IMG/VR virus record: IMGVR_UViG_3300006201_000011 | Coordinates: 1-64,000 of that record | Strand: one strand, 5' to 3' | From: an uncultured virus (IMG/VR IMGVR_UViG_3300006201_000011) | Taxonomy: Duplodnaviria > Heunggongvirae > Uroviricota > Caudoviricetes | DNA: 64,000 bases | In this document: positions 9,215 through 35,985 of the stretch, in pieces | Layout of the letters: every line of letters begins with the position of its first letter | Position numbering within the stretch: the first letter of the stretch is position 1 | Notes under the pieces: model-generated | What the model saw: only the letters and a program-made list of their open reading frames with translations | The model's database searches: none | What the model was told of the DNA's origin: nothing | Made by a program: the position numbers and the translations under genes

Positions 9215-9302
9215 CTCCTATTACTATTACAGGCATAGATCACGATTTGCTAACCACTAAAGCGAAAAAAGGCAGGAGAAAAACCCTCCCGCCTTAATCG
9301 TC

Positions 9303-9584: not shown

Positions 9585-9799
9585 TTTGCTTTCACCTTTC
9601 TATAATTTACACGAAACATCCCCAGCTCCCAGGAAGTCAAAACTCGCCCGACAATTTGTTCACCTTGCCCGATTGCTACGTCAGGATAATCCCTACAAAA
9701 CGAAAATGTACCGTCAGGACAGGCGATTACAATTTGATCGTATCCATCCCGCCTTGCCGCTCGTTTCGCGTTTTGAATGATTTTCTCTTTGCTCAACAT
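9581..9799 (-). CDS. hypothetical protein (72 aa)
   Basis: GGAGGTG RBS behind a motif copy. Confidence 0.75.
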   Translation of the reverse strand: MLSKEKIIQNAKRAARRDGYDQIVIACPDGTFSFCRDYPDVAIGQGEQIVGRVLTSWELGMFRVNYRKVKAK

Positions 9800-9835
9800 G
9801 GTAGCACCTCCTATTGCTATTACAGGCGCAGATTA

Positions 9836-10357
9836 TTATTTGCTAACCGTTTCTAAAACAAAATTGTGGCAGTTGCATCTTCCGCAAAAGAATCTTGTGG
9901 AGTCAGGATTGATCTCCAATTCTTTGACGATGTTTGACTTGCGGCGATACCTGGAAACTCCACCACAACCTTGGCAAGTCACCTTGTACTTGATGCCGTT
10001 GTCCACATCGTCGATCTCCTCAAAGTTTTCACATCGTTTGGCGTTACATCCCAGCCACAGCGCGGCCTGCTTCCAGATTGCGTCATGTCCGTGGTTTTTG
10101 TTATGCACCTTTGTGACATAAAGATGAGCGTATTCGTGCCGAATAACATTGATTATATGTTCCACCGCTCCATGCTCCATCAGCCGCTCCGCAAACACAA
10201 GCTCCTTGATGTAATACTTCTGACCTTTTCGTTGCCAGCAGCACTTGCCCCATGTTCTCGTCATTCTGGACGATATGCGAATTGGTACTTCACTGGTATC
10301 CAGGCCAGAAATTTTATCCAGCCGGTTCATTTCTTCACGAATGATACTTGTGTCCAT
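9836..10357 (-). CDS. SprT-like zinc metalloprotease
   Basis: RMTRTWG, IRHEYAH (HExxH), HGHDAIWK and C-terminal CxxC...CxxC. Confidence 0.85.
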   Translation of the reverse strand: MDTSIIREEMNRLDKISGLDTSEVPIRISSRMTRTWGKCCWQRKGQKYYIKELVFAERLMEHGAVEHIINVIRHEYAHLYVTKVHNKNHGHDAIWKQAALWLGCNAKRCENFEEIDDVDNGIKYKVTCQGCGGVSRYRRKSNIVKELEINPDSTRFFCGRCNCHNFVLETVSK

Positions 10358-10457
10358 GCCGACACCTCCCATTGATATAACATCCAGATTTATGTATCTG
10401 CTAACCGAACACAAAAAAAACGGGGAGAAAGTTTTATCTCTCTCCCCGTTGTCCGTT

Positions 10458-10757
10458 CTACACCGCAGCCTGCTCCTGCCGCAGCTTCCAGTTGTTCATA
10501 CGCTCCCGCTCCATCTTCATCGCCTCCACGTGGCCCGCCGCAGCCCTCGCAGCCCACCTCGCAGCCCGCTTGGGGTTGCGGGACTGCGCCTTGGCGTTGA
10601 CCGTCTGTGCCTCTCCCCAAGACGGGATGCCAGCCGCACGATGACGGCGATACTCCGCCTTGGTGATCTCCACCGCACCGTCCAGGATGTCCAGCCGCGT
10701 CGCATGGGCAACAAACTTCTGCCCGTTCTTCTCGCCGATCATGTACTGCTTCTTCAT
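10458..10757 (-). CDS. basic hypothetical protein (99 aa)
   Basis: GGAGG RBS; single-gene module. Confidence 0.75.
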   Translation of the reverse strand: MKKQYMIGEKNGQKFVAHATRLDILDGAVEITKAEYRRHRAAGIPSWGEAQTVNAKAQSRNPKRAARWAARAAAGHVEAMKMERERMNNWKLRQEQAAV

Positions 10758-10881
10758 GTTGTGTTCCTCCGTTTTATTTTTTTTGTTGGGATGTCTCCCA
10801 TTCTTTTTTACAGGTGAATAAATCCGCTTGCTAACCTATCACATAAAAAAAGCGGGCCAGCTTTTCGCCAGCCCGCTCACA

Positions 10882-11313
10882 TCATTCACACCACGCCTTT
10901 TTCCGTCCGGTACTTGAATACCAGGGATGATAGTCAAACTCGCCCCGCTTATTGGAGAGAAACCGGCGCAGCCGCTCTTTATCTTCCCGCCCCATCCAGC
11001 AAGTCAAGTTCGGATTGTCCCATCTCCCATTGTGCCGCTCCTTGCGTAGCATGGACTTTACAGCGGCAATCAACCAATCTTGGTTAATATCCAGCATATC
11101 ACAGACAGTAGCCAGACTCCAGCCGATCTGCCTGGAGCGCTCGGCCAATTCGCCCAGCCGATACGCCTCAGAGCCTCCCAGCGTTGAAACCCAGAGGTAA
11201 GCATCAGGGGAATACCCCTTGTTTTTCCGAACTTCCAAATTATACTTCTTACCCTCTGCCTCAGCATCGAAAAGCTCACATACGAGAGACACCAATTTTT
11301 CAACATCGTACAT
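10882..11313 (-). CDS. hypothetical protein (143 aa)
   Basis: GGAGG RBS. Confidence 0.75.
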   Translation of the reverse strand: MYDVEKLVSLVCELFDAEAEGKKYNLEVRKNKGYSPDAYLWVSTLGGSEAYRLGELAERSRQIGWSLATVCDMLDINQDWLIAAVKSMLRKERHNGRWDNPNLTCWMGREDKERLRRFLSNKRGEFDYHPWYSSTGRKKAWCE

Positions 11314-11440
11314 ACCAATACCTCCATTATTATATAGCAGTTTTGTGTTGGCTTCTATTACTATTACAGAGAATTTTCAGGTTTTGCTAACCGTCAAAAT
11401 AAAAAAGTTTTGGCCGGGAGAAATCCCGGCCTCCACCTTA

Positions 11441-12258
11441 TCAGCTATTCGCTTCCCGCATATATTCCCGTCTCGCGGCCCAATATGCTTTCCTTTGCGT
11501 CTCCGTGAAATGCAGCTCGTCAAAATACTGCTCAACCTCGTTTTCATCGTGGCCGTGGTACTGAATATTGCCGAACGCGCTCAGGGTATCCCAGTCCGCC
11601 TGCCAGTTGATTGCATACTCGTGATTTGCCATCTCGTACTTAAAAGCGGACTTCCAATACTCAAAATTGTCTCCCATAGCGTCCCGCGCCGCTTCCAGCC
11701 GCTGGAAAAGTGCAATGTGTTCCCGTACAAAATCAGCGTTGGTATAGTAGGCTCCAGCCGCTGGAAAAGTGCAATGTGTTCCCGTACAAAATCGGCGTTG
11801 GTGTAGTAGGCAAAACCGACAGGATTGAAAATCATCGTGGCGATTTTCTTCTTGCGCTCCTCTACCTCCTGCTTTGTGCCTCCGGCGTCAAATAGGGAGA
11901 TGTTGTCCTCCTGCATCCCGTAGTAGTTATGGAGATATCTGCTTCGGCGCTCGTATTCAGCATAATCCGACAGGGGAGAGGCGATTTCCTCCAGCGTAAA
12001 GAGAATGTTGCCCAGCTTCTCCACATAAACCTCCCGCAGCTGCTTCTGCGTTGCTTTCCTCCACTTGTGATGTAGCTCGTAGTCGTTCGCGTAGTAAATA
12101 TGGTGGCCGTTCTTGAATACCAGACAGCTATACCCGAAGTAGCCGCCGAAGTCCACCAGATAAACCGTGTGCCCCTTTACGTCCAGCTTTTCCAGCGCGA
12201 TAGCGGCGGCATCCGTTTCCGTCATGGCCTGAATCATGTCGATTGTGTAGTTTTTCAT
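11441..12258 (-). pseudogene. ~252 aa hypothetical gene frameshifted by a 59 bp tandem duplication
   Basis: Copies at 11694-11752 and 11753-11811; deleting one joins ...ALFQRLE to AARDAMGDNF... in frame. Confidence 0.8.
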
Positions 12259-12368
12259 TTTTAGCCCTCCTTGCGGCAAAACTCTATTGTTATTACAGAG
12301 CGTTTCCGGCGTTTGCTAACCATTCAGAAATAAAAATAGGGCGCTCCGTCTCCAGAGCGCCCACAAAT

Positions 12369-12515
12369 TTAATCGTCATCTTCATCATGTAAAGAACAGC
12401 TGCACCAGCATTGCGTTTCTTCCTCATAATATTCACTTAAAGGATTTTCACATACTCCAGCCGTTACATCCCACTCCCGTTCTCTGTTCCAGCATGGACA
12501 GTCTCTACATAGCAT
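12369..12515 (-). CDS. Cys-rich micro-protein with acidic tail (48 aa)
   Basis: MLCRDCPCW...CWCSCSLHDEDDD; AGGAGG RBS. Confidence 0.55.
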   Translation of the reverse strand: MLCRDCPCWNREREWDVTAGVCENPLSEYYEEETQCWCSCSLHDEDDD

Positions 12516-12657
12516 AAAAATCCTCCTTTACTATGACAAACTGAATTTTCAAAAGCTCCTCAATCGTTCCGTTCCTCAGAACCTTCCGATTTTTCGCCTC
12601 GATCTCCTTGGCCTCCGCCTCAGTAATCTCTTTATCGCCGATGAAGTATTGCTTCAA
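12505..12657 (-). CDS. hypothetical micro-protein (50 aa)
   Basis: TTG start after GGAGG, behind the motif at 12675-12705; MKQYFIGDK resembles the start of 10458-10757. Confidence 0.6.
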   Translation of the reverse strand: MKQYFIGDKEITEAEAKEIEAKNRKVLRNGTIEELLKIQFVIVKEDFYAM

Positions 12658-12747
12658 TCTTTCGCCTCCATTACTATTACAGGATGAAATGGGTATTTGC
12701 TAACCGTTTCTAAAAAATAGCCGGGGAATTTTCTCCCCGGCCAGCGC

Positions 12748-13308
12748 TCACAGATAGATTGCCAGCATAGTTTCAGCCTCTGCAATCTCCTTTCTCGTGC
12801 GCTCCAATGCGTTCCGTTCACACTCTATACCGTGAATCCATCCCTCAGACTCCGACTCGGCCAGGTCTGCTAAAATATCCTCTAACGCCTCTTGCAAATC
12901 GGCAATCTTTGCGCGGTAACGGCGGATACGCTGCTCCAGCTTCTCCGGCGCATTCTCCCGCGCCCACGCCGCCCATTTGCGCTTGCGCTCCATGCGCTCC
13001 TCAGCTTCCTGACGCTTCTCCTCAGCGTGGCGACGACCTGCATCCTCAGCCTCAGCCGGTGTAAATCCAAAAGTAATCTGCCCGCAGCCATTCAGTTTGG
13101 AGTAATTCAAGAAAACTTTCCTCCCGCTCCACTCCAATGTATAGTAATTGTGGCGGTAATAGTCTCCCTGAAACTGAGCAACCATCGTGGTATGTTTTTC
13201 CATCTTTTCGATGCAGATGGCCGTCTGCTTCCGTGACAGCCACATACCCTTATTTGTGCCGGCTCGCTCCAAGAGTGAAGGAAGAAATGTGTCATAAAAC
13301 CAATTCAT
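12748..13308 (-). CDS. hypothetical protein with C-terminal coiled coil (186 aa)
   Basis: AGGAGG RBS. Confidence 0.8.
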   Translation of the reverse strand: MNWFYDTFLPSLLERAGTNKGMWLSRKQTAICIEKMEKHTTMVAQFQGDYYRHNYYTLEWSGRKVFLNYSKLNGCGQITFGFTPAEAEDAGRRHAEEKRQEAEERMERKRKWAAWARENAPEKLEQRIRRYRAKIADLQEALEDILADLAESESEGWIHGIECERNALERTRKEIAEAETMLAIYL

Positions 13309-13422
13309 TATGTATGCCTCCTGATTTGAAATTTTGTGTCCTCTATTCTTATTACAGCGCTAAAATATGTTTTGCTAACCATGAAAAAGAAAAAGCGGCG
13401 GGAATATTCCCGCCGCTACCGT

Positions 13423-13752
13423 TCACACTGCCAGACTAACCCGAATTGCCTGATTGACCTGCTCCTGCGTGTCCGTATCAATCCGTCCCAGATGTCTACC
13501 CAGACGGCGCTTGTCAATCGTTCTGATCTGTTCCAGTTCCACAAAAGACGGGCGCTGGAGACAGTGCAAATTTACGTGCGTGGGGAACCTGGACTTGCGC
13601 ATCCGGCTACTAATCGGCGCAATAATCACCGTGGGCGAATAGGTGTTCCCTGTGTTGTTTTGGATAACCAGCACTGGCCTAACTCCGCCTTGCTCACTGC
13701 CCCCCGATACCGTCAAATCCGCCATGTAGATTTCTCCGCGTTTGACTTCCAT
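13423..13752 (-). CDS. mazF: MazF/PemK-family endoribonuclease
   Basis: KRGEIYMADL...GSEQGGVRPVLVIQN..GN.YSPTVIIAPISS...EQIRTIDKRRL. Confidence 0.9.
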   Translation of the reverse strand: MEVKRGEIYMADLTVSGGSEQGGVRPVLVIQNNTGNTYSPTVIIAPISSRMRKSRFPTHVNLHCLQRPSFVELEQIRTIDKRRLGRHLGRIDTDTQEQVNQAIRVSLAV

Positions 13753-14009
13753 TATTGTAGCCTCCTTCCGTCCCAAATGACATTAAATTGAACCCGTGGC
13801 CGCTCGATCATGTAGCACCAGCTATCCGCGTGCGCCTCATCCGCCGCCTGCATTTTGGGGATATACATTCCATCATCCACCTCGAAAATAGCGATCCAGC
13901 CGTCGTTCATTGTGGCGAACGCATAGTCAATCCCGTTGAAATGCTTGCGGACTACATGACCCGTTCCGTTTTCGGCTACCCACTTTTCAAAGCCGTTCCT
14001 ATCCAGCAT
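13752..14009 (-). CDS. hypothetical protein (85 aa)
   Basis: GGAGGTG RBS, coupled to mazF. Confidence 0.75.
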   Translation of the reverse strand: MLDRNGFEKWVAENGTGHVVRKHFNGIDYAFATMNDGWIAIFEVDDGMYIPKMQAADEAHADSWCYMIERPRVQFNVIWDGRRLQ

Positions 14010-14138
14010 GATTGCACCTCCGATTGTTTCAGACTTATTGCCCGTTCTATTCTTATTACAGGCGATTTCCCGCCTTTGCTAACCATTCCGACAAAAAAAT
14101 AACGGCGGGAAAATTCCCGCCGTTCAGCTGTTCCGCTA

Positions 14139-14492
14139 TCATACCTCCCGATATACGCAGCCCGTCCAGACCTGTTCCGTAGTACCAGGGCATCCGTCCA
14201 CCGCACGACCAAGCCGCTTGCACCTCCAGCAAATGCTGTTGAGCTTTTCCAGGCCACCCAGCCAATCCACAGAGCGGATATAATCGCAGATGTCCGGGTT
14301 ATAGTCCTACTCCAAAATGTACTTGCACAGCGCGGCCTGTACTTGAGCGTTGTTTCTGGCATTCATCGCCCGTGTAATCTCTCCGCCTATGTAATATCCA
14401 AAAATTCTCTGCTCCTCCATGCAGTAGTTATAGAAGTCTTTCGCGTCATACGGTTCGCCGTCCTTACGGTCAAGAATCCTGTCAACGATCAT
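14139..14492 (-). pseudogene. 117-codon gene interrupted by an in-frame TAG
   Basis: AAGGAGG RBS, MIVDRILDRK...LCKYILE*DYNPDICDYIRSVDWL...YREV-TGA; TAG at 14307-14309. Confidence 0.65.
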
Positions 14493-14905
14493 TTTGTGTT
14501 CCTCCTTGAATTTTGTTTTGGCCTCTGTTATAATTACAGAAAGATTTTCCGCTTTGCTAACCAATCCATCAAATTTTCCAGGGGACAAAAAAATGAGATT
14601 ATACGATAATCCATGGATGGCCGTTACCTATCTATTAGGTGCAAGCGCTAAAGGCTTAAAGAATTGCCTCCAAAATGCCATTGATAAAAGAGATGATAGA
14701 AAAGAATCCGAATCCAGAGCGAACCTTCCCACAAATGACCAGGAGCGCAAACGATATAACGCAACACACAAACGACGGGAAAGGGGAGCCACAATTTCCC
14801 TTGTGGCATCCGTTTAATACCATCCATTCTTTATGGCCTCTGGTATTCCTTTTTTGGCAAATACTGAAATGAAAAAAGGCGGGGAATTTCCCCGCCTCCG
14901 TTCCT

Positions 14906-15241
14906 TTATGCGCAAAATGTCAACAGCTTTTTCATGTTATACCGGCCTGCGACCTCCAGTTTTTCCTCCGTCCGTCCTCCTACAACCTGCCACGCTTCAC
15001 CGTTCTTTTTCCGTGTGAACGTCTCCGCGATATACTCGCCCGTTCCATCATAGTGCTTGAAGTAGTAAACGCGGCGGATTGTCTGCTCCGTCTCCGTCTC
15101 CGCTATAACCTTTTGAAAGGCCGGGTACTCGTTCCCGTAGGCGGGATTGTAGAGGTAGTTTGCGATGTCGAACTTGTAGCCGTTCGGCGCTTCCAGCTTC
15201 CGGATTTTGTTTATGTATTCCGGTTTGAGATTTCTTGCCAT
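14906..15241 (-). CDS. hypothetical protein (111 aa)
   Basis: GGAGG RBS. Confidence 0.8.
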   Translation of the reverse strand: MARNLKPEYINKIRKLEAPNGYKFDIANYLYNPAYGNEYPAFQKVIAETETEQTIRRVYYFKHYDGTGEYIAETFTRKKNGEAWQVVGGRTEEKLEVAGRYNMKKLLTFCA

Positions 15242-15376
15242 GTTCGTAACCTCCAAAAATTTGTTGTGGGCGTTGCCTCTATTCTTATTACAGCCCCTTT
15301 TCCCGTTCTGCTAACCGTTTCAAAAAATCTTTTTGAGATGACAAAAGGCCGGGGATAATTCCCCGGCCCGCCGTCT

Positions 15377-15553
15377 TTATGCCTCCAGAATCGCCTTGAT
15401 TGTCTCATCCGTCGTGATGATCTCCCGATTGTAGAGACTGAGCGCCCGCGCCACGTTGCGGAATTTTTCGGCCTTGTGTTCCTCTTTCATCAGAGTATTT
15501 CCCGCTATCCGCTCCATAACATCGGCGGCATAGTCCAGCACAAACTTTTTCAT
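15377..15553 (-). CDS. hypothetical protein (58 aa)
   Basis: AAGGAG RBS. Confidence 0.65.
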   Translation of the reverse strand: MKKFVLDYAADVMERIAGNTLMKEEHKAEKFRNVARALSLYNREIITTDETIKAILEA

Positions 15554-15619
15554 GTGTTCAACTCCTTCCATGTTCAGCGGGCGGACACCTCGCAGCATCC
15601 GCCCGCCGTTTCTGTTCTG

Positions 15620-15979
15620 TTAGATGAAGTACATCTCGCCGTTGATTTCCAGCGCGACGGCCTCTTGTCCCATCTCCTGCTTCAGCGCCTCGCAGTGATC
15701 GACCACGGCGGCGATCCCGTTCTGCAAATCCGCATCGCTGGCGTAGGCGAAAACAACGGTGGTATTCTCAGCGACCAGGCCGGCCACGGGAGAGAGCCAA
15801 TAGCCCAGCGCGGCGGTAGAGGTGGAGCCGCCGAAAAGATCGGCCAGCAGCGCGGCGGTTTTCTTCACCTGTTCCGTATTGTCGGCGGCGTCGGCCACTC
15901 CGTTTGTGGCGGGCACGTAAACGGTAACTTTGCTGGAGAGCTTGATGCAGGCTTTCAGTTTGGCGTTGTTGATAGTCAT
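15620..15979 (-). CDS. hypothetical protein (119 aa)
   Basis: First gene behind the motif at 16049-16079; FGG.T.T..LGYW...LV.E pattern. Confidence 0.8.
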   Translation of the reverse strand: MTINNAKLKACIKLSSKVTVYVPATNGVADAADNTEQVKKTAALLADLFGGSTSTAALGYWLSPVAGLVAENTTVVFAYASDADLQNGIAAVVDHCEALKQEMGQEAVALEINGEMYFI

Positions 15980-16095
15980 GATATGTAACCCCTTTCAATT
16001 TTTGGGGGAGCCGGTGGTGGTGATTTCCACCGGCCCGCCCTTTATTCTAATTACAGCTTGATTTTGTTCGTTGCTAACCTAAATTTGAAATTTTT

Positions 16096-18076: not shown

Positions 18077-18916
18077 ATGAATACTCAGTTGTCGCTCTTC
18101 GAGCATGAAGCTACCATCCCTGTGGCCTCCCACACCAGCACTAAGGTTATCCAGCTATTTCCCAATATTCCTCCTCGGAAGCCTAACTATCGTGCTGGTG
18201 GAGAGCAGACCGTATTTCCCATCAAGCGTCAGGAGGATCTGAATGCTATGGCTTCTTGGCTCTACCATAACGCAGATCGCAAATATCTCCTTGGCTTTAT
18301 CCTTGGGATCAACCTTGGCCTAAGAGCCAACGAGCTTCTGGAACTGAAGCACTCTGACATCTTTTTCCCTAATGGAGAATTGAAATATGTCTCTGACGAT
18401 TTCTCTGACACTACGGATAAGATGAGTGTCTATCAGAATAAGGTGCATAAGCGACGGGGAATGTACCTTAACTCCTCTTGTGTTAAGGCTCTTGACTGGT
18501 ACTTTCCTGTGAAAAGCCCCAGCCTATGCAGAGACACCTACCTATTTCCGTCCAGGGAGTGCCAAGCTCGTAAAGACAGAGATGGCAAGGTTCGCACAGA
18601 TAACATCAAGGACATAGATGGAAATTACCATGTAGAGGTTGATACTCTTCGTAAGATTCTGAAAGACGCTGCTAAGGCTTGCGGACTGAAGCAGAACATC
18701 GGGACTCACACCCTACGCAAGACCTTTGGCTACTTCCACTACCAGAGCAATCACGATATTGTATTTCTTCAAAGACTATTTGGACATTCCTCCGCCTTAA
18801 TTACCATGCGCTACATCGGTATCGCTGATGAGGAAGAGAAGAAATCCTACCATAAGGTTTCCATCGACCTGATGGGAATGCTGGAACCGGAACTGGCGTC
18901 CGCTGATGTACGGTAG
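18077..18916 (+). CDS. Tyrosine recombinase (279 aa, no arm-binding domain apparent)
   Basis: GLRANEL (R), THTLRKTFG (HxxR), LFGHSS (H), MRYIG (Y). Confidence 0.95.
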   Translation: MNTQLSLFEHEATIPVASHTSTKVIQLFPNIPPRKPNYRAGGEQTVFPIKRQEDLNAMASWLYHNADRKYLLGFILGINLGLRANELLELKHSDIFFPNGELKYVSDDFSDTTDKMSVYQNKVHKRRGMYLNSSCVKALDWYFPVKSPSLCRDTYLFPSRECQARKDRDGKVRTDNIKDIDGNYHVEVDTLRKILKDAAKACGLKQNIGTHTLRKTFGYFHYQSNHDIVFLQRLFGHSSALITMRYIGIADEEEKKSYHKVSIDLMGMLEPELASADVR

Positions 18917-27607: not shown

Positions 27608-27784
27608 AAAAGCACAAATCCGGGTGTGAATTATTGCTTTTTGGTAGAAAAATTCTAATTTGACCACACCTAACCGCCGAGGTTGCTCGGCGGTTAGGAA
27701 TAGCATTTTTGTGGTCAAATTATGAAGGGGAAGTAACGAACAAAATCAAGCCCCTCGAATCTATATGAAAAGGATGAGTTTTTC

Positions 27785-28215: not shown

Positions 28216-29450
28216 AACAATTCGTGAACCCTAAGTACGAGCAAAAAGATGGTGAAGATCTTTACGAGTATGGGCTTCGTCTGATTGAAATTAAGATGGA
28301 GCAGAAACCGGACGACCTGGACTGGGAAGATATCGTAGAGGCGACTCAGCTGGACTGTCATCGGGATAGTCTGAGGAAAGCGGCGTCTGTTACGCCATAC
28401 TCTGGCTATGCCGTCGCCCAACACTTTAAGCGAAAGTATGCAGCGGTAGACCGACCGGATAAAGAGCAATATCTGGGAGAGCTTGATATCAAAATTGCTG
28501 AAGCCAGAAAAGAATCTAAACGGCTCTTTGATCAGCGGCGTGAGTTTAACAAGCTGGTTGACCGCATTGGACGGACTGAAAATCTGGAAGACCGTCTTGT
28601 GGAGGCGGCTGCGGCATTGAACGAGTCTACGCCTCTGAATATAGACAAATCTTCCGTTTACGCCTATGGTGATAACGAAGCGGTTATTGTGTTTGCGGAT
28701 TGGCACTATGGTATGGTGACAGATAACATCTGGGAGCGTTATAATACCGAAGTGTGCCGCTGTCGTGTGGAACGGTTGGTGGAAACGGCAATCGAACGGA
28801 TCAGACTGCATCGCTGTCGGAGGCTTCATATCCTTCTGCTGGGGGATATGGCCCACGGTGCGATTCACACCAGTGCCCGTGTTGCCTCTGAAGAGTTGGT
28901 GTGCGATCAGGTGATGCAGGTGTCGGAAATTATTGCCCAAGCAGTGGCTGCTCTGGCAGATGTAGTTGACGAAACGGTGGTACACGCAACCTACGGAAAT
29001 CATTTGCGCACCGTCCAGAATAAACAAGACAGCATTCACGCGGATAACATGGAGCGTCTGATTCCTTGGTGGCTGGAACAACGACTGGGTGATAGGGGCG
29101 ACATTCAATTTCCCCAAGCTGAGTATTACGAATTTCTATACTTTAATGTGTGTGGTTATCAGATTTGCGCCACTCACGGCGACCTTGACAGTGTGAAGAA
29201 CGCCGGCAGGACGTTGAACACTCTGTTTGTGAAGAAATATGGCTCTGGAATTGATTATGTTATCCTTGCTGATAAGCACCACAAAGAGGAATTTGAGGAA
29301 TTGGGCATTGAGAGCATGATCGTAAGGTGCCTTTGCGGAACTGACGAGTATGCGAACGGGAAGCGGTTATATTCCACTCCGGGTCAACTGATGATGGTGT
29401 TTACGCCTGGGATTGGCGCTGACGCATATTATCAGATCAAACTGAACTGA
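28212..29450 (+). CDS. Metallophosphoesterase/exonuclease-like protein (412 aa)
   Basis: FADWHYG, LLGDMAHG, YGNH, THGD, ADKHH. Confidence 0.8.
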   Translation: MKQFVNPKYEQKDGEDLYEYGLRLIEIKMEQKPDDLDWEDIVEATQLDCHRDSLRKAASVTPYSGYAVAQHFKRKYAAVDRPDKEQYLGELDIKIAEARKESKRLFDQRREFNKLVDRIGRTENLEDRLVEAAAALNESTPLNIDKSSVYAYGDNEAVIVFADWHYGMVTDNIWERYNTEVCRCRVERLVETAIERIRLHRCRRLHILLLGDMAHGAIHTSARVASEELVCDQVMQVSEIIAQAVAALADVVDETVVHATYGNHLRTVQNKQDSIHADNMERLIPWWLEQRLGDRGDIQFPQAEYYEFLYFNVCGYQICATHGDLDSVKNAGRTLNTLFVKKYGSGIDYVILADKHHKEEFEELGIESMIVRCLCGTDEYANGKRLYSTPGQLMMVFTPGIGADAYYQIKLN

Positions 29451-29461
29451 GGAGTGATCAT

Positions 29462-29779
29462 GTGCTCAAAAACGATCTTGTAGTTGCCTTGTCCGAGATG
29501 GACTATTACAAAAATCAGGCTGGTGCTGTAATCAACGATGTGTTCCATGTCATTGCAGAGGCGTTGGCTCATGGCGAGAAAGTAACAATTCGGGGATTTG
29601 GGACATTTGAGGTGAAGACAAGGAAAGGATGTCTTGTGCGAGACATCCATACCAAAAAGCAAAGACAAATGGACGATTATCGGGTGGTTGTGTTCCGTCC
29701 TGGTGATAATTTGAAAGAGGCTGTAAAGGCTAACGACCCTGGGAAACTCCGCTTGTTGAGCAGAGCAGAAAAAAATTGA
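29462..29779 (+). CDS. hup: HU/IHF-family DNA-binding protein
   Basis: LAHGEKVTIRGFGTFEVKTRKG...VVFRPG..LK. Confidence 0.9.
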   Translation: MLKNDLVVALSEMDYYKNQAGAVINDVFHVIAEALAHGEKVTIRGFGTFEVKTRKGCLVRDIHTKKQRQMDDYRVVVFRPGDNLKEAVKANDPGKLRLLSRAEKN

Positions 29780-29799
29780 AAAAATTTTGTTCGCCGCTA

Positions 29800-29828
29800 T
29801 TGACATCTGGTTCAGAGCGTGCTATACT
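29800..29828 (+). promoter_or_regulatory. SigA-type promoter of the RNA island, enclosed by 17 bp perfect inverted repeats
   Basis: TTGACA-17 nt-TATACT with extended TG; inverted repeats at 29784-29800 and 29835-29851. Confidence 0.85.
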
Positions 29829-29862
29829 ATAACCATAGCGGCGAACAAAATCAATGTTCCTT

Positions 29863-30495
29863 GAAAATTTAATCTTTGCATCATGCTTATTACTAACTCG
29901 GTGAACAAAGTGTGTCAGCACTCCGAGGCGTATGGTATTTTCGGTTTGACTTGGCGATTGTCTATGGACATCGTAGCATAGGGATACCTTTCAAGTGAGG
30001 CCGCTACTGTACAGTGATGTACGGTGGGGAGGCGGAAACCGCCAACAGAAACATATGTCGCCAAGAGTTATCGCTTCATAACGCACAGAACTTTCGGGCG
30101 CAACAATAGACGCTCCTGTGGAGAATAAGCCTTGCAGTAGCTCGGTGTGGTAGCCGAGAGATACGGAGGTAAAACCAACAATGCGCTCCTGTCTTGATGT
30201 CGGAGAAATCCGGCTATAACGAAAGTCACTGGTTAGAGTAGCCGTAGGACAGATTGCAAAATCTTTTGAAGAAATTACTATAAAAGTAAGTATTTAATTC
30301 AAAACTTTTCTGAACGAACGGTGAAATTTGTGAGTAAACAGGCTCACGTAGGAGGTGGCGCTATGGCGCTGGGGCAAGAAGTTAGGGGTCGCTCCCCGAA
30401 GCTCAGACTTGTCTCCCTGGTGGCGGAACAATGAAGAAGATTATGGAGGTAGGGCGAAGGCCCAGTGGTGAGTATGATGGAAAGATTAAATTTTC
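29863..30495 (+). ncRNA. Large structured ncRNA (~630 nt), ROOL-like
   Basis: No ORF; 5' GAAAATTTAATCTTTGCATCATGCTTATTACT pairs with 3' AGTGGTGAGTATGATGGAAAGATTAAATTTTC (~30 bp with G-U pairs); many internal hairpins; size and tRNA/phage context fit ROOL. Confidence 0.7.
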
Positions 30496-30521
30496 CTTAG
30501 AAACAAACAAAATCAATGTAT

Positions 30522-30597
30522 GGGGTTGTAGCTCAGTTGGGAGAGCGCCTGTTTTGCAAGCAGGAGGTCGGGAGTTCGATCCTCCCTAATTCCACCA
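30522..30597 (+). tRNA. tRNA-Ala(TGC)
   Basis: Cloverleaf, CCTGT-TT TGC AA-GCAGG, CCA end. Confidence 0.95.
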
Positions 30598-30711
30598 GCA
30601 AGATATGTTGGTTATGCTGACGCTTGTGTGGTTCAGTTCATTACTTAACTACTATTCCTGTCAGAAACCTATCGGTCATGAACGAGGTTCTTCGGACGCA
30701 TATCGCTAAAT

Positions 30712-30787
30712 CGGGATATAGCTCAGTTGGTAGAGCACACGACTGATAATCGTGCGGTCAGAAGTTCAATTCTTCTCGTCCCGACCA
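30712..30787 (+). tRNA. tRNA-Ile(GAT)
   Basis: Cloverleaf, CACGA-CT GAT AA-TCGTG, CCA. Confidence 0.95.
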
Positions 30788-30810
30788 TAGGTACTTTGAC
30801 AATTCTATAT

Positions 30811-31235
30811 GGGGCCGTTTTTAGATTCGACGGGGTTTTGAGAGTGCAAGACTCACAGGTAGATGACCGCCTAAAGGCATACCTAAAAATGAAATGACAA
30901 CACTGAATCTGTTGTAATGATCCACCCCGCTTTTGCTGCTTTTGTGGCTGAGAGGGCTGCTGCCTGATTGGTGGCTGGATTCCAAAACGACGCACCAGCT
31001 GGATATGGGTAAGCGTCTGCGGTTAAAGAATCATCCAGCACGTGCAGTTTCTCCTTGTGCTTCTGTAAAATAAAGACAAGGTGGTGGAGGTGTACAAACC
31101 AGTACGCCCTAGGAAAGATTTGACGGTATCGCAAGTGCCCGCCGCAAGGCATCGCTGGAAAATCGTCTATTGTGTAAGAAGGTCTTGCTCATGTAGGAAT
31201 TTCGGACAGGGGTGCGAATCCCCTCGGCTCCACCA
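30811..31235 (+). ncRNA. ssrA: tmRNA; predicted tag (A)DNTESVVMIHPAFAAFVAERAAA*
   Basis: GGGGCCG..GATTCGAC 5' end, CGGCTCCACCA 3' end with G3-U70, T-arm, tag frame 30896-30967 ending in AAA. Confidence 0.92.
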
Positions 31236-31241
31236 TACATA

Positions 31242-31296
31242 GGGACACTAACAGCAATTTATAATTTTTTAAGGTAAAAAAGAAAAAAAGTGTCCT
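31242..31296 (+). ncRNA. skipping-rope-like RNA, copy 1
   Basis: GGACACT-AACAGCAA-AT-rich loop-AGTGTCC. Confidence 0.6.
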
Positions 31297-31298
31297 GT

Positions 31299-31385
31299 GA
31301 GACGCGCACAGCAAATTTTCAAAATATTCTATCAAATGTTTTTTAAGTCCGACAAGGATAACCACCTCCATTTTTTTCGCGTCTC
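31299..31385 (+). ncRNA. skipping-rope-like RNA, copy 2
   Basis: GAGACGCG-CACAGCAA-loop-CGCGTCTC. Confidence 0.6.
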
Positions 31386-31398
31386 GTAGCCTAAGTAT

Positions 31399-31475
31399 TG
31401 GCGGGTAGCTCAGATGGCAGTAGCATCTGACTGTTAATCAGAGGGTCGTGGGTTCGAGTCCCACCCTGCCAGCCA
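31399..31475 (+). tRNA. tRNA-Asn(GTT)
   Basis: TCTGA-CT GTT AA-TCAGA, CCA. Confidence 0.95.
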
Positions 31476-31551
31476 GTAGCTCAAAACATGGCAGAGAGTT
31501 TACAGGCAACTGATGTCTACATCGGTGCTGTTTTTAGAACTGCCAACATAT

Positions 31552-31627
31552 AGCGGGATAGAGAAGCGGTCATCTCGTCATCCTCATAAGTTGGAGATCG
31601 TGGGTTCGAGTCCCACTCCCGCCACCA
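31552..31627 (+). tRNA. tRNA-Met(CAT), initiator-like
   Basis: CT CAT AA loop, A1:C72 mismatch, A11-U24, CCA; weak anticodon stem. Confidence 0.85.
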
Positions 31628-31784
31628 TGCCCACCCCACAAACAGAGCGGAGACTGTAAACTGAATGGGGAATAGAAATGTTCACAATCTGGCAGTGAAA
31701 ACTTTTAGCAGGTTTCAAGCGAAACCGCTGCGTCCCAACAGCAGAGAGTTGGCACCATGGCCTACGGTGTGAGTAGGTCAATAT

Positions 31785-31860
31785 GTGGGAATAGCTCAAC
31801 TGGTAGAGCGCCGTCCTTCCAAGTCGGATGTTGCGGGTTCAAGTCCCGTTTCTCACTCCA
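31785..31860 (+). tRNA. tRNA-Gly(TCC)
   Basis: CCGTC-CT TCC AA-GTCGG, U73, CCA. Confidence 0.92.
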
Positions 31861-32084
31861 ATCTATTATATCTGTGACTTCTCTACTTTGGCAGATATGA
31901 TGATAGGTGCCGGCTCCCCTGGCATCTTTAGCAAATAGTGGAGGGATGGGAGCAGGGAAAAATACCTGTTGGTTGCCCACAAACCGTTAGTGAACGTAGA
32001 GCCAAGTGGGATATTACCAGCCATGTGGAGCTGGCCGCAGCTCCTTGCAACTGGTGACGATCAGATTGCCTTGGATGGTTTTAT

Positions 32085-32168
32085 GGGGATATGGCGGAAT
32101 TGGCAGACGCACCGGATTTAGGTTCCGACGCAGTTCGCGTGTGGGTTCGACTCCCACTATCCCTACCA
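32085..32168 (+). tRNA. tRNA-Leu(TAG)
   Basis: TT TAG GT loop, long variable arm, CCA. Confidence 0.92.
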
Positions 32169-32170
32169 TT

Positions 32171-32232
32171 GGAGCACTAACAGCAACTTTTTTTTGGAAT
32201 CAACTTTTAATTGACAACCCAAAATGTGCTCC
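32171..32232 (+). ncRNA. skipping-rope-like RNA, copy 3
   Basis: GGAGCAC-TAACAGCAA-loop-GTGCTCC. Confidence 0.6.
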
Positions 32233-32243
32233 GTAGGAAACAC

Positions 32244-32329
32244 GCTGGTGTGTTGGAATGGCAGACGAGGCAGACTCAAAATCTGTTGCCAGAAATGGCG
32301 TGTGGGTTCAAGTCCCACCACCAGCACCA
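32244..32329 (+). tRNA. tRNA-Leu(CAA)
   Basis: GCAGA-CT CAA AA-TCTGT, long variable arm, CCA. Confidence 0.95.
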
Positions 32330-32443
32330 AGCCGAACAAGGGTTTATAGTAGGCGGAGGGAAAACCAGAAACCCTGACACGCTCTATTCAGAGTGGAAAC
32401 AGTGATTGCATAAGGCAACGATACACGCTGTTAGGCCCGTTAT

Positions 32444-32519
32444 GATACCGTAGCCAAGATTGGTAAGGCTCTGGGCCGCAACCCCAGGATCGTAGGTTCA
32501 AATCCTATCGGTATCTCCA
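32444..32519 (+). tRNA. tRNA-Cys(GCA)
   Basis: CTGGG-CC GCA AC-CCCAG, U73, CCA. Confidence 0.9.
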
Positions 32520-32552
32520 TAAAGAAACCCCGCCTTTCGGCGGGGAGAGAAA

Positions 32553-32750
32553 TCACAGCTCAATACCGAGCTTTTCAGCGATTTCTTCGGGAGACATATC
32601 GGATGCTTTTGCCAGGATCTGTTGGATTTTGATTGGCTTTTCAAGCTCTGCTTTTTCTGCTTGTAGCTTTGCGATCTGGGCGTCGATGTCCTTGATACGT
32701 TGTTCCGGTGTGCGTTTCCTACGAGTAACGGTTTTCTTTTCCTCAGCCAT
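32553..32750 (-). CDS. small coiled-coil protein (65 aa), antisense within the tRNA array
   Basis: AAGGAGG RBS, SigA-like promoter at about 32788-32816, terminator at 32527-32545. Confidence 0.8.
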   Translation of the reverse strand: MAEEKKTVTRRKRTPEQRIKDIDAQIAKLQAEKAELEKPIKIQQILAKASDMSPEEIAEKLGIEL

Positions 32751-32822
32751 GGTTACGCCTCCTTATAAAGTTTGCTACAAGAAGTTTATACCATATTTCT
32801 GAGAAAAATACAATAGCGATTT

Positions 32823-32896
32823 AGGGGTGTCGCCAAATGGTAAGGCACGGGACTTTGACTCCCGCATCGTTGGTTCGATTCCAGCCACCCCTGCCA
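32823..32896 (+). tRNA. tRNA-Gln(TTG)
   Basis: CGGGA-CT TTG AC-TCCCG, CCA. Confidence 0.95.
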
Positions 32897-32898
32897 AA

Positions 32899-33037
32899 GA
32901 TGTGGTGGCGGAATAGGTAGACGCTATGGAGTCGTAAGACAGTGGTGGAGAGCTGTGCGGCGTTTGACAAAGACGATACAACCGGAGGACTCCAGCTCTG
33001 GCTGGGTTATGTGAGGTGCAAATCCTCGCCCACATCT
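32899..33037 (+). ncRNA. tRNA-like RNA with the anticodon arm replaced by a large insert
   Basis: Acceptor GATGTGG/CCACATC, Leu-type D arm GCGGAATAGGTAGACGC, T arm GAGG-TGCAAAT-CCTC; no canonical anticodon loop and no encoded CCA. Confidence 0.75.
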
Positions 33038-33045
33038 TAATATAT

Positions 33046-33122
33046 GCTCCCATCCTCTAACTGGAATAGGAGGCTGGCCTTTCAAGCCGGTAATGCGAGT
33101 TCGAGCCTCGCTGGGAGTACCA
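33046..33122 (+). tRNA. tRNA-Glu(TTC)
   Basis: CTGGC-CT TTC AA-GCCGG, CCA. Confidence 0.93.
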
Positions 33123-33127
33123 TACTT

Positions 33128-33204
33128 GGTGCCGTGGACGAATTGGTAGAGTCGCCGCCCTCTCAAGGCGGAGTTTGAGAGTTCAAATCTCTCCGGCATC
33201 ACCA
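33128..33204 (+). tRNA. tRNA-Glu(CTC)
   Basis: CCGCC-CT CTC AA-GGCGG, CCA. Confidence 0.93.
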
Positions 33205-33219
33205 AAAAGAGGAGTAGCT

Positions 33220-33450
33220 ATGGCAAGAGGATCTGCTGATAATAAACCGAAAATCGTGAGAAAATTTCCTTCTTCTGAGAATGGGACTGGTGTTCATTGT
33301 ATTACGACAACCGGACAGGAATATTTCATAACTCAATGTCTGGAAAGGATGCGGTTTACTTTATGGCGCAAGGTTGAAGACGGATATGAACAAATTAGTA
33401 CAGCGAAGTCTCCCCTGGATTTAGATGATAAAATACCTTGGGATAAGTAA
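33220..33450 (+). CDS. hypothetical protein (76 aa) within the tRNA array
   Basis: GAGGAG RBS before ATG 33220. Confidence 0.7.
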   Translation: MARGSADNKPKIVRKFPSSENGTGVHCITTTGQEYFITQCLERMRFTLWRKVEDGYEQISTAKSPLDLDDKIPWDK

Positions 33451-33453
33451 AAT

Positions 33454-33529
33454 GGCCTCGTAGCTCAATCGGAAGAGCGCCAGCCTGTCACGCTGGAGGT
33501 AGCGGGATCGAAACCCGCCGAGGTCGCCA
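33454..33529 (+). tRNA. tRNA-Asp(GTC)
   Basis: CCAGC-CT GTC AC-GCTGG, G73, CCA. Confidence 0.95.
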
Positions 33530-33532
33530 TAT

Positions 33533-33606
33533 AGGGGTCTGGTGTAACGGTAGCATGAAAGTCTCCAAAACTTTTGGTGAGAGTTCAAATCTTTCGGCCC
33601 CTGCCA
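33533..33606 (+). tRNA. tRNA-Trp(CCA)
   Basis: AAAGT-CT CCA AA-ACTTT, CCA. Confidence 0.93.
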
Positions 33607-33607
33607 T

Positions 33608-33683
33608 GCTGACGTAGCTCCAATGGTAGAGCAGTTGTTTCGTAAGCAGCGGGTTCAGAGTTCGAGTCTCTGCGTCAGCTCCA
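33608..33683 (+). tRNA. tRNA-Thr(CGT)
   Basis: GTTGT-TT CGT AA-GCAGC, CCA. Confidence 0.92.
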
Positions 33684-33686
33684 TTT

Positions 33687-33762
33687 GCTGGTGTAGCTCT
33701 AATGGTAGAGCAACCGTTTTGTAAGCGGTGGGTTCTGGGTTCGAGTCCCTGCACCAGCTCCA
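33687..33762 (+). tRNA. tRNA-Thr(TGT)
   Basis: ACCGT-TT TGT AA-GCGGT, CCA. Confidence 0.93.
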
Positions 33763-34109
33763 TATTTGCCCGATTGAGATAACATATCACGGCTGTGAGT
33801 GGCGGTCGTAATCCAAGGTGGCCTCCTGTGAGGGAGTGACTGGGCATAAAAGAAAGAGCGGTTAGGTAGCGTTGTACTATCGAGGGCGTTGCGGAAGCTG
33901 CGCACAGGCCATAGCCGCACACAGATGGCAACAGCCACGTAACTGCGGAAGCGTGGATATGTGCAACGGATGTCATGTACATCGAAATACCTTGGTAGAC
34001 TCAGATGGGAAACACTAATCCCCCTGCTCCCCGATAGAAAGGCTGAAATATGGCACAGCGTAAAGGTGTGTGGTGAGGCTGGGAGTGGAGTCACTTATGC
34101 AATTTATAT

Positions 34110-34196
34110 AGGGGAGCGCCAGAGTTGGAGAGCTGGGGCGGACTGTAAATCCGTTGCTTTCGGGCTGAGTGGGTTCGATTCCCACCTCCCCTACCA
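34110..34196 (+). tRNA. tRNA-Tyr(GTA)
   Basis: GCGGA-CT GTA AA-TCCGT, long variable arm, CCA. Confidence 0.93.
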
Positions 34197-34247
34197 CAAG
34201 TGTTTGTTGCTACCCGATATGCAACTAAAACAAGGTCGGGTTCAAAT

Positions 34248-34338
34248 GGCGGAGTGGCCGAGTGGTTGATGGCACCAGTCCTGAAAACTGGAGGCGGTGA
34301 TGAGCCGTCCGTGGGTTCAAATCCCACCTCCGTCGCCA
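34248..34338 (+). tRNA. tRNA-Ser(TGA)
   Basis: CCAGT-CC TGA AA-ACTGG, long variable arm, G73, CCA. Confidence 0.92.
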
Positions 34339-34471
34339 ACGGGATGTGTTGATATTTACCATTTTCTAACGACCCTATGATAAACGGTACGAAAAGGCGT
34401 TACCCCTACGAAACGGGCGGTGGTCTTATGCGCTGACCTGTGATTACCGTTAAACAAAAATGCGCATATAT

Positions 34472-34548
34472 GGGTTGATGGCTTATGAGGTCTGAGCGAC
34501 GGTCTGAAAAACCGTAGGATGAAGGATCGTTACCTTCTCAACCCACCA
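34472..34548 (+). tRNA. tRNA-Phe(GAA)
   Basis: ACGGT-CT GAA AA-ACCGT, atypical T loop ATCGTTA, CCA. Confidence 0.85.
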
Positions 34549-34847
34549 GCCTGAAAAGGCACACCTCTACCCTGGATGACGTGTGACGGTTCTGACACGT
34601 CGGTAAAATAAAAATTGACCGAGTGTGGGTAGCATAGGGGTCGCTCCCTCCGGTGAAATTCCGGCGCAGGCAAAACGCGATAGATAACCTAAACGCTGTA
34701 AGCAAAGCGGCATAGCCGATCAGGAGCGCGGCGGGCTAACATACCCCAACGGGACTTCGAGAGCCTGAAAAAGTATGTTTTGCACCCGTATCAGTGAGGG
34801 TAGGCCAGTGGGATACGGCCACACAGACCCTACCCACCCTTATATAT

Positions 34848-34923
34848 GCGCCTGTAGCTCAGTTGGTAGAGCAGCTGGCTTTTAACCAGTTGGCCGGGGG
34901 TTCGAGTCCCTTTAGGCGCACCA
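34848..34923 (+). tRNA. tRNA-Lys(TTT)
   Basis: GCTGG-CT TTT AA-CCAGT, CCA. Confidence 0.95.
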
Positions 34924-34945
34924 GCAAAATACTATAACGACTAAA

Positions 34946-34978
34946 AAAACCTCGGGATCTTCGGATTTCCGAGGTTTT
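34946..34978 (+). terminator. Intrinsic terminator ending the RNA island
   Basis: AAAACCTCGGGATC-TTCG-GATTTCCGAGGTTTT. Confidence 0.75.
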
Positions 34979-35004
34979 GTCATATTAAGAAGGGAGGTCG
35001 CAGT

Positions 35005-35985
35005 ATGGCGGCAAAGAAACAGCTAAAGAAACCTGCTCCTTTGAAAGTGAATAAGGATGCAAAACCGAGCGAGGCCGAGCCGCGTGTTGTTGAGGATAGG
35101 GTATATCGCTGTCCACGCTGCGGCCATGAGTACACAAAGCAAGAGGGGAATTTTTCTCCTTCTAAGTCCCCACTGTTTAAGGGGAACAACGGTTATGTAG
35201 TTTACTGTCGTAAATGCGTGGCAGAAATGTTTGAAGAGAATATCCCGTTCTTTGATAAGGATGAGGATTCTGCAATGGAGCGTGTGTGTCAGATTATTGA
35301 TCTATGTGTGGACGAAACAGCATGGGCCGCTTCACGAAAAATCAGTGCCAATCGCAATCGCATGAGTGGATATATCTCTAAGCTGAATATTAAGCAGAGC
35401 AGCAAAGAGTCCACATATTCCGATACGCTAATCAGGCGCTTTGAGGCTGAGGTTGAAAATGCTGCGACTGTACAAGAGGCGGAGGACAATGACGATATTA
35501 CAACTAATATCGAGGTGATCCGCAGATTTGGATTGGGATTCTCTGATGGTGATTATGATACCCTGCAAGGAGAATATGACAGCTGGGTAGATCGCTGTGG
35601 TGCGCCTGTGGATAAACGACAGGATGAGCTTTATGTTTCCATCTGCTATTTGAAGCTGAATTTACAAAACAGTGTGAAAAATAGTGCGGCAGGTGTTGGT
35701 GCTCTTGCAAATTCCTACAAGGCGTTTATCGAAGCGGCCACAACGGAGATTGAAGATCGTAAGAAGAAAGCAGAAGCAGAAATGCAGCTCAGTCCTTTGG
35801 GTGTGATGATTCGGGATATTGAGGAACATTGTCCGGCTGACTTCTATAAGGATAAGGCGATTTATGCTGATTATGACCATCTAAAAGAGTACATTCAAAG
35901 GTTCATGTTACGGCCACTCAACAACCTTTTAACTGGCTCCAAAGAAATGGATAAGGAGTTTAACCTGTCTGGATCGGAGGAGTGA
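35005..35985 (+). CDS. Zinc-finger protein preceding the terminase (putative small subunit)
   Basis: CPRC...YCRKC; position immediately upstream of the large terminase. Confidence 0.65.
   Translation: MAAKKQLKKPAPLKVNKDAKPSEAEPRVVEDRVYRCPRCGHEYTKQEGNFSPSKSPLFKGNNGYVVYCRKCVAEMFEENIPFFDKDEDSAMERVCQIIDLCVDETAWAASRKISANRNRMSGYISKLNIKQSSKESTYSDTLIRRFEAEVENAATVQEAEDNDDITTNIEVIRRFGLGFSDGDYDTLQGEYDSWVDRCGAPVDKRQDELYVSICYLKLNLQNSVKNSAAGVGALANSYKAFIEAATTEIEDRKKKAEAEMQLSPLGVMIRDIEEHCPADFYKDKAIYADYDHLKEYIQRFMLRPLNNLLTGSKEMDKEFNLSGSEE

Follow-up and report, generated by a model that had tools for sequence, protein, structure and literature searches.

ROOL is a known RNA family described by Weinberg 2017 (PMC5737381), and its members form cages. 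The env-120 ROOL is an octamer by cryo-EM (Kretsch 2025, PMC12286853) and assembles in vitro without proteins, according to the same paper. As reviewed in PMC12990946, the E. faecalis ROOL is an octamer and the L. salivarius ROOL is a hexamer. ROOL RNA can exceed 16S rRNA in abundance, as reported in PMC5643018, which also reports that deletion of ROOL in L. salivarius has no growth phenotype. Atomic structures of the ROOL cages exist, without a known function, partner or maturation route. GOLLD is, like ROOL, a large ornate cage-forming RNA found near phage tRNAs (PMC12286853).

The other described system of interest here is the leader-trailer unit of ribosomal RNA. In B. subtilis, RNase III is reported to cut the 16S stalk (PMC4838370), and NusB to bind the sequence AUGAUCUUUGAAA (PMC13753749). 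The E. coli rrn complex bridges the 5' and 3' arms and boosts RNase III cutting, as a recent preprint describes (bioRxiv 10.64898/2026.03.17.712431). Loss of boxA in rrn is reported to cost only 2-3-fold (PMC10250234), and PMC13753749 presents the rrn antitermination complex as not yet reconstituted in Bacillota.

Here we analyse one ROOL gene in the window, by which we mean the whole 64,000-nt stretch of viral DNA under study. The window is an SPbeta-like Oscillospiraceae prophage, whose gene order resembles that of SPbeta. We propose that its ROOL gene is built as a miniature rRNA transcription unit, a reading to which we give a probability of about 0.6. Among the top-ranked matches of our literature search, no paper joins ROOL or GOLLD with boxA, NusB or RNase III; the E. 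faecalis and L. salivarius cryo-EM papers, the GOLLD papers and the Weinberg 2017 supplements are places where such a link could be mentioned. A term search in the supplements of PMC12286853, as far as these were covered, gives 0 occurrences of boxA and 0 of Nus.

ROOL identity, fold and cage contacts

The ORF-free stretch at 29863-30495 is a genuine ROOL gene, ordinary by family. The gene and its neighbours are as follows.

29462..29779, + strand: HU-like gene, upstream neighbour of ROOL (PF00216, E 4e-22)
29873..30482, + strand: ROOL RNA, full-length match to Rfam RF03087 (348.5 bits, gathering 99.1; model positions 1-574; E 8.9e-80)
30522..34923, + strand: island of 19 tRNA genes, with tRNA-Ala(TGC) first and then tRNA-Ile(GAT)
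30811..31235, + strand: phage tmRNA (RF00023, 72 bits), with a candidate tag frame at 30896-30967 chosen by eye

An earlier note on this DNA had called the stretch ORF-free, had inferred the ROOL label, and had placed the RNA at the head of a tRNA island. Only overlapping ORFs of at most 63 aa touch the region, the full-length Rfam match confirms the family, and the 19 tRNAs and the tmRNA do lie downstream. GOLLD, also proposed there for comparison by covariance model, is absent from the 44 Rfam matches up to E = 10 in the region, and this absence together with the full-length RF03087 match rules out both GOLLD and a new RNA class. The location is that of other ROOLs, near tRNAs within a prophage, with terminase and portal matches present. 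The 691-nt region folds with z = -5.7, and 0/20 shuffles are as stable.

The window ROOL shares with known ROOLs the full-length model match, the size, the multi-junction fold, the pseudoknots and the A/U-rich linker, as well as counterparts of bridges B1, B4 and B6 and the position beside tRNAs in a prophage. Relative to the Rfam model, it has an extra 35-nt insert in a 5' arm, and its closing helix runs 10-13 nt further at each end, starting in a boxA-like word that lies outside the model. Covariation, another check named in the earlier note, is present: 82/156 predicted pairs show compensatory changes across 16 related ROOLs (alignment A1). Four non-nested helices (pseudoknot or kissing) are paired in 95.9% of cells with 6/17 pairs compensatory, against 17-38% paired in slid controls. 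An unbiased scan for further covarying stems returns only the known helices and weak candidates of 3-4 bp. The tertiary features are these.

29915..29916, + strand: hairpin-loop bases that pair with 30316-30317 and correspond to cage bridge B1 (by-eye match to the env-120 table)
30148..30151, + strand: loop that pairs with 30174-30177 and corresponds to cage bridge B4 (paired in 100% of cells, with one compensatory pair)
30189..30193, + strand: pseudoknot strand pairing with 30248-30252 (3/5 pairs compensatory)
30253..30308, + strand: A/U-rich variable linker, of poor conservation and variable length in alignment A1
30309..30313, + strand: pseudoknot strand pairing with 30403-30407, invariant in 16/16 rows and so without covariation support
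30389..30393, + strand: loop UCGCU with the GC dinucleotide of symmetric bridge B6, matched by eye

The counterparts of B1, B4 and B6 were assigned by eye against env-120 (PMC12286853, Supplementary Table 2). For B1, both pairs are kept in 16/16 rows and both are compensatory; the window has two clear pairs there, where env-120 has four. B6 in env-120 is a G-C' pair, and the segment corresponding to the linker is disordered and cage-internal in the solved ROOLs (PMC12286853). The bridge counterparts and the conserved non-nested helices make cage formation likely. By homology, the window ROOL very probably assembles into a hollow hexamer or octamer.

The earlier note had also listed two tetraloop hairpins. 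GGGC-GAAG-GCCC is present at 30452-30463. The sequence of GGCG-GAAA-CCGCC is real but its tetraloop form does not stand, as in GGCGGAAACCGCC at 30031-30043 a 5-bp stem closes a loop of 3 nt, where the Rfam tetraloop has one base more.

Phage setting, promoter and repeated box

Upstream of ROOL are genes for a 944-aa probable single-chain RNA polymerase, a YonK-like protein (sub-threshold), an exonuclease-like protein and HU; the tRNAs and tmRNA downstream are followed by terminase and portal. The polymerase has no PDB or Pfam match. It is probably YonO-like, judging from a DFDSD motif, matches annotated as RNA-dependent RNA polymerase, the neighbouring YonK match (E 0.009) and the gene order of SPbeta, and it has 15 distant matches among cultured phage records. 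ROOL itself is covered by none of the best 20 of 325 matches in 50,697 cultured phage records; these 20 are all to tRNA. A nearly identical phage lies inside a 259-kb contig of an Oscillospiraceae isolate, the far part of which is host-like (G+C 0.62 against 0.46), and this identifies it as a prophage.

ROOL comes and goes among the relatives of this phage. In a tree with 41 phage rows, from which three loci that are partial or short and the loci without HU or polymerase matches were excluded, ROOL presence needs two changes, and a ROOL-less clade is nested among carriers; the more divergent relatives L348 and L349, outside the tree, carry ROOL. Absence was judged within about 6 kb on each side of the site, and the relatives without ROOL there indicate that it is dispensable at that site. 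ROOL is present in the isolate Oscillospiraceae C18_42_OV_BP, and within the stretches examined there is none at the site in Dysosmobacter segnis BX15 and Hominicoprocola fusiformis CLA-AA-H269.

The signals upstream and around the gene are the following.

27692..27723, + strand: variant phage-type start signal (GGTTAG ... AATTAT), the only + strand copy listed
29784..29800, - strand: operator-like box (16.2 bits), which makes the left arm of a perfect 17-nt palindrome surrounding the promoter
29800..29828, + strand: sigma-A-type promoter TTGACA-17-TATACT with extended TG (11/12 consensus, best of 9 sites in 29400-35200)
29835..29857, + strand: operator-like box, right palindrome arm, holding the first direct-repeat copy 29844-29857 (26.1 bits)
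30497..30519, + strand: third operator-like box, holding the second direct-repeat copy 30506-30519 (22.7 bits)

The sigma-A promoter is conserved in ROOL-bearing and ROOL-less relatives, and its -10 element ends 26 nt before the boxA-like word described below. The flanking direct repeat pointed out in the earlier note, AACAAAATCAATGT, is exact at 29844 and 30506 and occurs nowhere else as an exact 14-mer. It is part of a regulatory, dispersed operator-like box, not a ROOL-specific boundary. With a matrix trained on nine other copies, the ROOL-flanking ones excluded, 13 sites in the record exceed 15 bits, compared with 0-1 for each of 8 simulated genomes. All 13 are intergenic or at gene junctions; two abut other sigma-A promoters, and two lie in the spacer of phage-type promoters. 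Three related phages carry 21 and 27 copies of the window variant and 19 of an own variant (reversed controls 0-2), and two further genomes, G094 and G095, have only 0-3 copies of either box pattern. The two direct-repeat copies change together between phage lineages, and a lineage-matched box copy follows ROOL in the five ROOL lineages printed.

We consider the three boxes around ROOL likely binding sites of a phage regulator, which would tie the promoter to the lysis-lysogeny switch. In layout they resemble SPBRE, the element bound by MrpR (PMC10516654): both are short boxes repeated at intergenic or promoter positions across an SPbeta-like genome, and both have copies ahead of the RNA polymerase gene cluster as well as around an integrase-fold gene. 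In contrast to the SPBRE/MrpR system, 12/13 box copies of the window phage are on the sense strand, and no catalytically dead recombinase was identified in this phage. No MrpR-like repressor was found, with no MrpR among 3 PDB matches, and the integrase-family proteins of the window and of the complete relative G093 seemingly keep their catalytic motifs, as read by eye.

The integrase-fold gene at 18077-18916 (PF00589) has a sigma-A promoter of its own at 17987, a perfect one, and two operator-like boxes, at 17959 and 18048. Unlike MrpR, it seems by eye to keep its catalytic residues, and it is a candidate regulator or resolvase. The phage-type start signal GGTTAGCA-N16-CTGTAATA occurs in 17 copies on the left arm (306-16079, minus strand). 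In the distant ROOL-less relatives L025-L047 and L035-L042, a conserved 90-nt element (containing GTGAAAGCTC(A/G)ACG and, further on, ATGAGAAAGG) stands just after the HU-like gene, where the promoter region of ROOL lies; it has no Rfam match at gathering level in L025, L035 and L040.

The start signal at 27692 is a candidate upstream promoter that would read through the yonK-, yonJ- and HU-like genes into ROOL. Contigs from RNA libraries cover the ROOL locus, and those of three studies begin at 27687-27772, near this signal. In 3/4 RNA-library assemblies, contig depth over 27.7-32.3 kb far exceeds that over terminase and portal; in run X13 the ROOL contig has a depth of 4879, against 165-170 beside it and 14 on terminase, and run X8 has a flat, DNA-like depth. 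These are assembled contigs only, whose depth cannot rank genes, from runs found by means of the same stretch, and they give no more than a hint that ROOL is strongly expressed. The X13 contig breaks at 29987, 30019, 30474 and 30491 are not readable as RNA ends; the loose end at 30474 resembles what we take to be an rRNA chimera.

A boxA-like word at the base of the closing helix

In the earlier note's reading of the locus the family stands, and what it missed are a boxA-like word at the helix base, another before the tmRNA, and the sigma-A promoter with its palindrome.

29855..29868, + strand: rRNA-type boxA-like word TGTTCCTTGAAAAT (15.0 bits), overlapping the helix base and upstream of the Rfam model
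29863..29894, + strand: 5' arm of the 32-bp closing, leader-trailer-like helix, pairing with 30464-30495
30464..30495, + strand: 3' arm of the closing helix, pairing with 29863-29894
30790..30803, + strand: second boxA-like word (10.2 bits), 21 nt before the tmRNA

The terminal helix, described before as about 30 bp with several G-U pairs, has 32 positions, made of 27 Watson-Crick pairs, 4 G-U pairs and one G-G mismatch. As a duplex it is worth -39.2 kcal/mol, and only 1/1835 control duplexes at similar spacing along the record is stronger. Compensatory changes occur in 16/31 of its pairs; 0/500 shuffles are as high, a test that relatedness of the sequences can inflate, and slid controls are 38-45% paired.

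The helix starts within the boxA-like word, which is the best boxA site on both strands of the 74-kb record. The word matches 11/13 letters of the B. subtilis NusB-binding consensus and is identical at 11/14 positions to the host's own rrn spacer word, so that the base of this leader-trailer-like helix carries a word matching host rRNA boxA. The rrn operons of Clostridia have a near-identical word at the start of their 16S leader-trailer helix and once more ahead of 23S; it forms the base of the 16S helix in 5/6 Clostridia rrn loci with both flanks, the trailer of the sixth being masked. The boxA matrix was built from 15 rrn sites of 10 genomes, chosen by a regular expression guided by a consensus assumed beforehand, and on held-out Coriobacteriales rrn flanks it scores 28/29 above 5 bits.

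The word recurs in the family. We scanned 60 loci with Rfam, 53 of them hand-picked from 163 profile-match loci and 7 of them ROOL-less relatives. Of the 54 ROOL matches we set aside L101, which is cut off, and L203, which is short; with the window included, this gives 53 ROOLs. A boxA word of at least 10 bits lies within 45 nt of the model start in 29 of these 53, which were picked by hand after their flanks had been inspected, against 3/1089 flank windows. Counted by clusters at 80% identity, 15/30 ROOL clusters are boxA-positive, and the word persists among ROOLs that are only about 50% identical in their core. The Rfam ROOL model ends short of this conserved 5' element. The boxA-positive ROOLs also have longer closing helices (median 28.5 bp against 16 bp; 16 against 14 clusters, p = 0.012).

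On the ROOL tree the boxA label changes 7 times, and 22/53 ROOLs score below 8 bits, which means that boxA is not needed for ROOL in general; the ROOLs without it retain the whole fold. Eleven of the 22 belong to a single clade in which the helices are 12-17 bp long. Most of these eleven abut tRNAs, a sign that tRNA processing may release them instead; others directly follow a promoter. The mild cost of boxA loss in rrn would fit such repeated loss. A G at the AAA position of the word occurs in 5/6 Coriobacteriia ROOLs and 17/28 Coriobacteriales rrn sites, and elsewhere in 1/25 other ROOLs and 1/15 Clostridia rrn sites. This is only a hint that the word is matched to the host group, as it concerns one clade and G+C content may explain it. 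The rRNA comparison used order-level relatives, 16S being found in 0/5 of the Coriobacteriia and Phascolarctobacterium genomes that carry ROOL.

Duplicated ROOLs occur as well. A Coriobacteriia genome has two tandem ROOL genes, each with its own boxA-like word (L183:1413-2610), and L205 and L248 are two ROOL copies 8 kb apart on one contig.

A boxA-like word also stands 21-22 nt before the phage tmRNA in 25/25 tmRNA-bearing loci (of 67), with or without ROOL. Among distinct leaders, 9/10 tmRNA leaders reach at least 9.9 bits, and only 5/337 tRNA leaders reach at least 8. In L010 and L014, which have 23-24 tRNAs and no ROOL or tmRNA match, there is no boxA site above 8.5 bits, and at the heads of ROOL-less islands 0/11 loci exceed 6.6 bits. 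The word therefore follows the large RNAs, not the tRNA islands. By our reading of the window, the tmRNA word is not at the base of a long helix, which favours recognition by a protein over an RNase III word. NusB is present in 5/5 host genomes and a Rho RNA-binding domain was found in 0/5 of these incomplete genomes, and together these favour a role of boxA in folding or processing over protection from Rho.

The candidate tag of the phage tmRNA, DNTESVVMIHPAFAAFVAERAAA, is unusually long and ends in AAA. We take a permuted tmRNA match at 30726-30943 (50.5 bits) to be an artefact, as it overlaps both tRNA-Ile and the adjoining standard tmRNA.

Maturation, rival readings and function

Compared with the Bacillota 16S/23S leader-trailer unit as described in PMC13753749, PMC10250234 and PMC4838370, the ROOL gene has a similar layout: a strong sigma-A promoter, a boxA that follows after about 20-26 nt and forms the base of a long helix around a structured RNA, and then tRNA-Ala(TGC) and tRNA-Ile(GAT), both of which are found in the rrn spacer of the genome G001. 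The differences are that the cargo is ROOL, that the helix abuts its cargo without long spacers, and that no 5' boxB-like hairpin is evident. The tRNA order is Ala-Ile in the phage and Ile-Ala in G001; with ROOL-less phages sharing the same tRNA pair, and the order differing, the tRNA part of the likeness is weak.

By analogy, ROOL is probably folded and released like pre-16S rRNA. Host RNA polymerase would start at the sigma-A promoter, and NusB/S10 would bind the boxA word about 20 nt into the transcript. An rRNA-type complex would then retain the 5' arm until transcription has moved on by 570 nt and the 3' arm appears; the helix would close and be cut by RNase III (or Mini-III), and RNase P would free tRNA-Ala, leaving a stable RNA of about 600 nt. 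The analogy makes this route, from promoter start through NusB/S10 and arm tethering to the two cuts, a likely one. For the family at large, the balance tips slightly towards ROOL having been ancestrally, and in about half of its lineages, a client of the host Nus complex and RNase III, with boxA retuned in each host group and used by the same phages for tmRNA.

The same word could instead serve antitermination through the 5-kb untranslated tRNA island, with ROOL merely following. The word is placed for this, at the island head, with the -10 element 26 nt before it; the region contains terminator-like hairpins, tmRNA-bearing ROOL-less relatives keep a boxA-like word early in the island, and in L048 the best boxA word precedes tRNA-Asn. 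Against it, the head boxA is lost whenever ROOL is absent and is missing from islands with neither large RNA, as counted above, it also stands before ROOLs for which no tRNA was found in the nearest 200 nt, and the five hosts yielded no Rho, all of which makes antitermination an unlikely main role. A little less probable still is that the word owes its conservation to recognition of the processing stalk by RNase III or Mini-III, and not to NusB binding. In Clostridia the word is part of the 16S stalk itself, which RNase III is reported to cut in B. subtilis (PMC4838370), and the longer helices of boxA-positive ROOLs also agree with it; but conservation holds for the 5' letters and not for their partners (of 80 cells in columns 20-24, 2 are compensatory and 23 unpaired, in a count where 3/16 rows lack the word), and the tmRNA, which the word also precedes, has no long stalk by our reading.

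Insertion of ROOL as a mobile or selfish cassette, with a target-site duplication of 14 nt, is what the exact flanking repeats, co-varying between lineages, might suggest, together with the single sense copy that ROOL-less relatives keep before tRNA-Ala and the patchy distribution on the phage tree. We think it very improbable. The repeat is a genome-wide box, with 13 related copies and a variant particular to each phage; in L004 and L007 the first copy is separated from ROOL by one or two tRNAs, so the repeat is neither unique to ROOL ends nor abutting, and the target-site duplication is rejected. In the flanks printed for ROOLs of other phages there is no such repeat, the deeper relatives L348 and L349 carry ROOL, which fits loss, and no mobility gene adjoins it; deletion from box to box may explain the losses. 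It is also improbable, if less so, that the transcript's own effect is to compete with host rrn, a mass-made, boxA-bearing and RNase III-cut RNA drawing off Nus and processing factors and damping ribosome synthesis, with the cage secondary. Reported ROOL abundance (PMC5643018) and the X13 contig depth would suit such a role, and the rrnTAC preprint discusses sequestration of Nus and processing factors as harmful (bioRxiv 10.64898/2026.03.17.712431); but the fold is complete in ROOLs without boxA, a hairpin with boxA would be enough by itself, and the word is partly buried once the helix closes.

The reading of ROOL as a miniature rRNA unit probably bears on how the RNA is made, not on what it does. 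For function we offer a speculative and doubtful idea: an abundant rRNA-like cage, acting together with the phage tRNAs and tmRNA, might shield translation by serving as a decoy or scaffold, on which host RNases or anti-phage factors directed against stable RNAs would be taken up. Co-transcription with tRNAs and tmRNA, dispensability like that of an accessory counter-defence gene, and the rRNA-like dress favour it.

If the rRNA-unit reading is true, the Nus complex would extend from a device for rRNA and CRISPR arrays to an assembly line for large phage RNAs in Rho-less Bacillota, and the cage RNAs would be made, and perhaps act, as rRNA mimics. The boxA word and the processing helix name the first candidate host partners of ROOL (NusB, S10 and RNase III), and point mutations in boxA could separate ROOL production from ROOL use. 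Natural controls are offered by closely related prophages that differ in whether this site holds ROOL, some of them from named isolates.

Several other elements were seen in the tRNA islands. At 31243-31297, 31299-31387 and 32172-32233, between tRNAs, a 6-8 bp stem surrounds a long A/U-rich loop starting ACAGCAA. One to four copies occur in 7/7 related islands printed, and the stems change in pairs; they have no Rfam family at gathering level and a weak match to Dictyostelium class I RNA (E 0.01). A 65-aa coiled-coil/HTH-like ORF at 32553-32750 (minus strand) ends at a terminator-like hairpin (32528-32545). The stretches 32899-33035 and 33770-34100 are tRNA-like and uncalled by ARAGORN or Rfam, possibly degenerate or intron-bearing tRNAs, and one of the two has tRNA-like ends around a long insert. 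The ROOL-less islands of L008, L010 and L056 have tRNA-Sec-like Rfam matches (about 49 bits). L048 carries a 6A RNA, L165 has a skipping-rope RNA directly upstream of ROOL, and in L007 (8510-9416) a protein gene is inserted between ROOL and tRNA-Ala.
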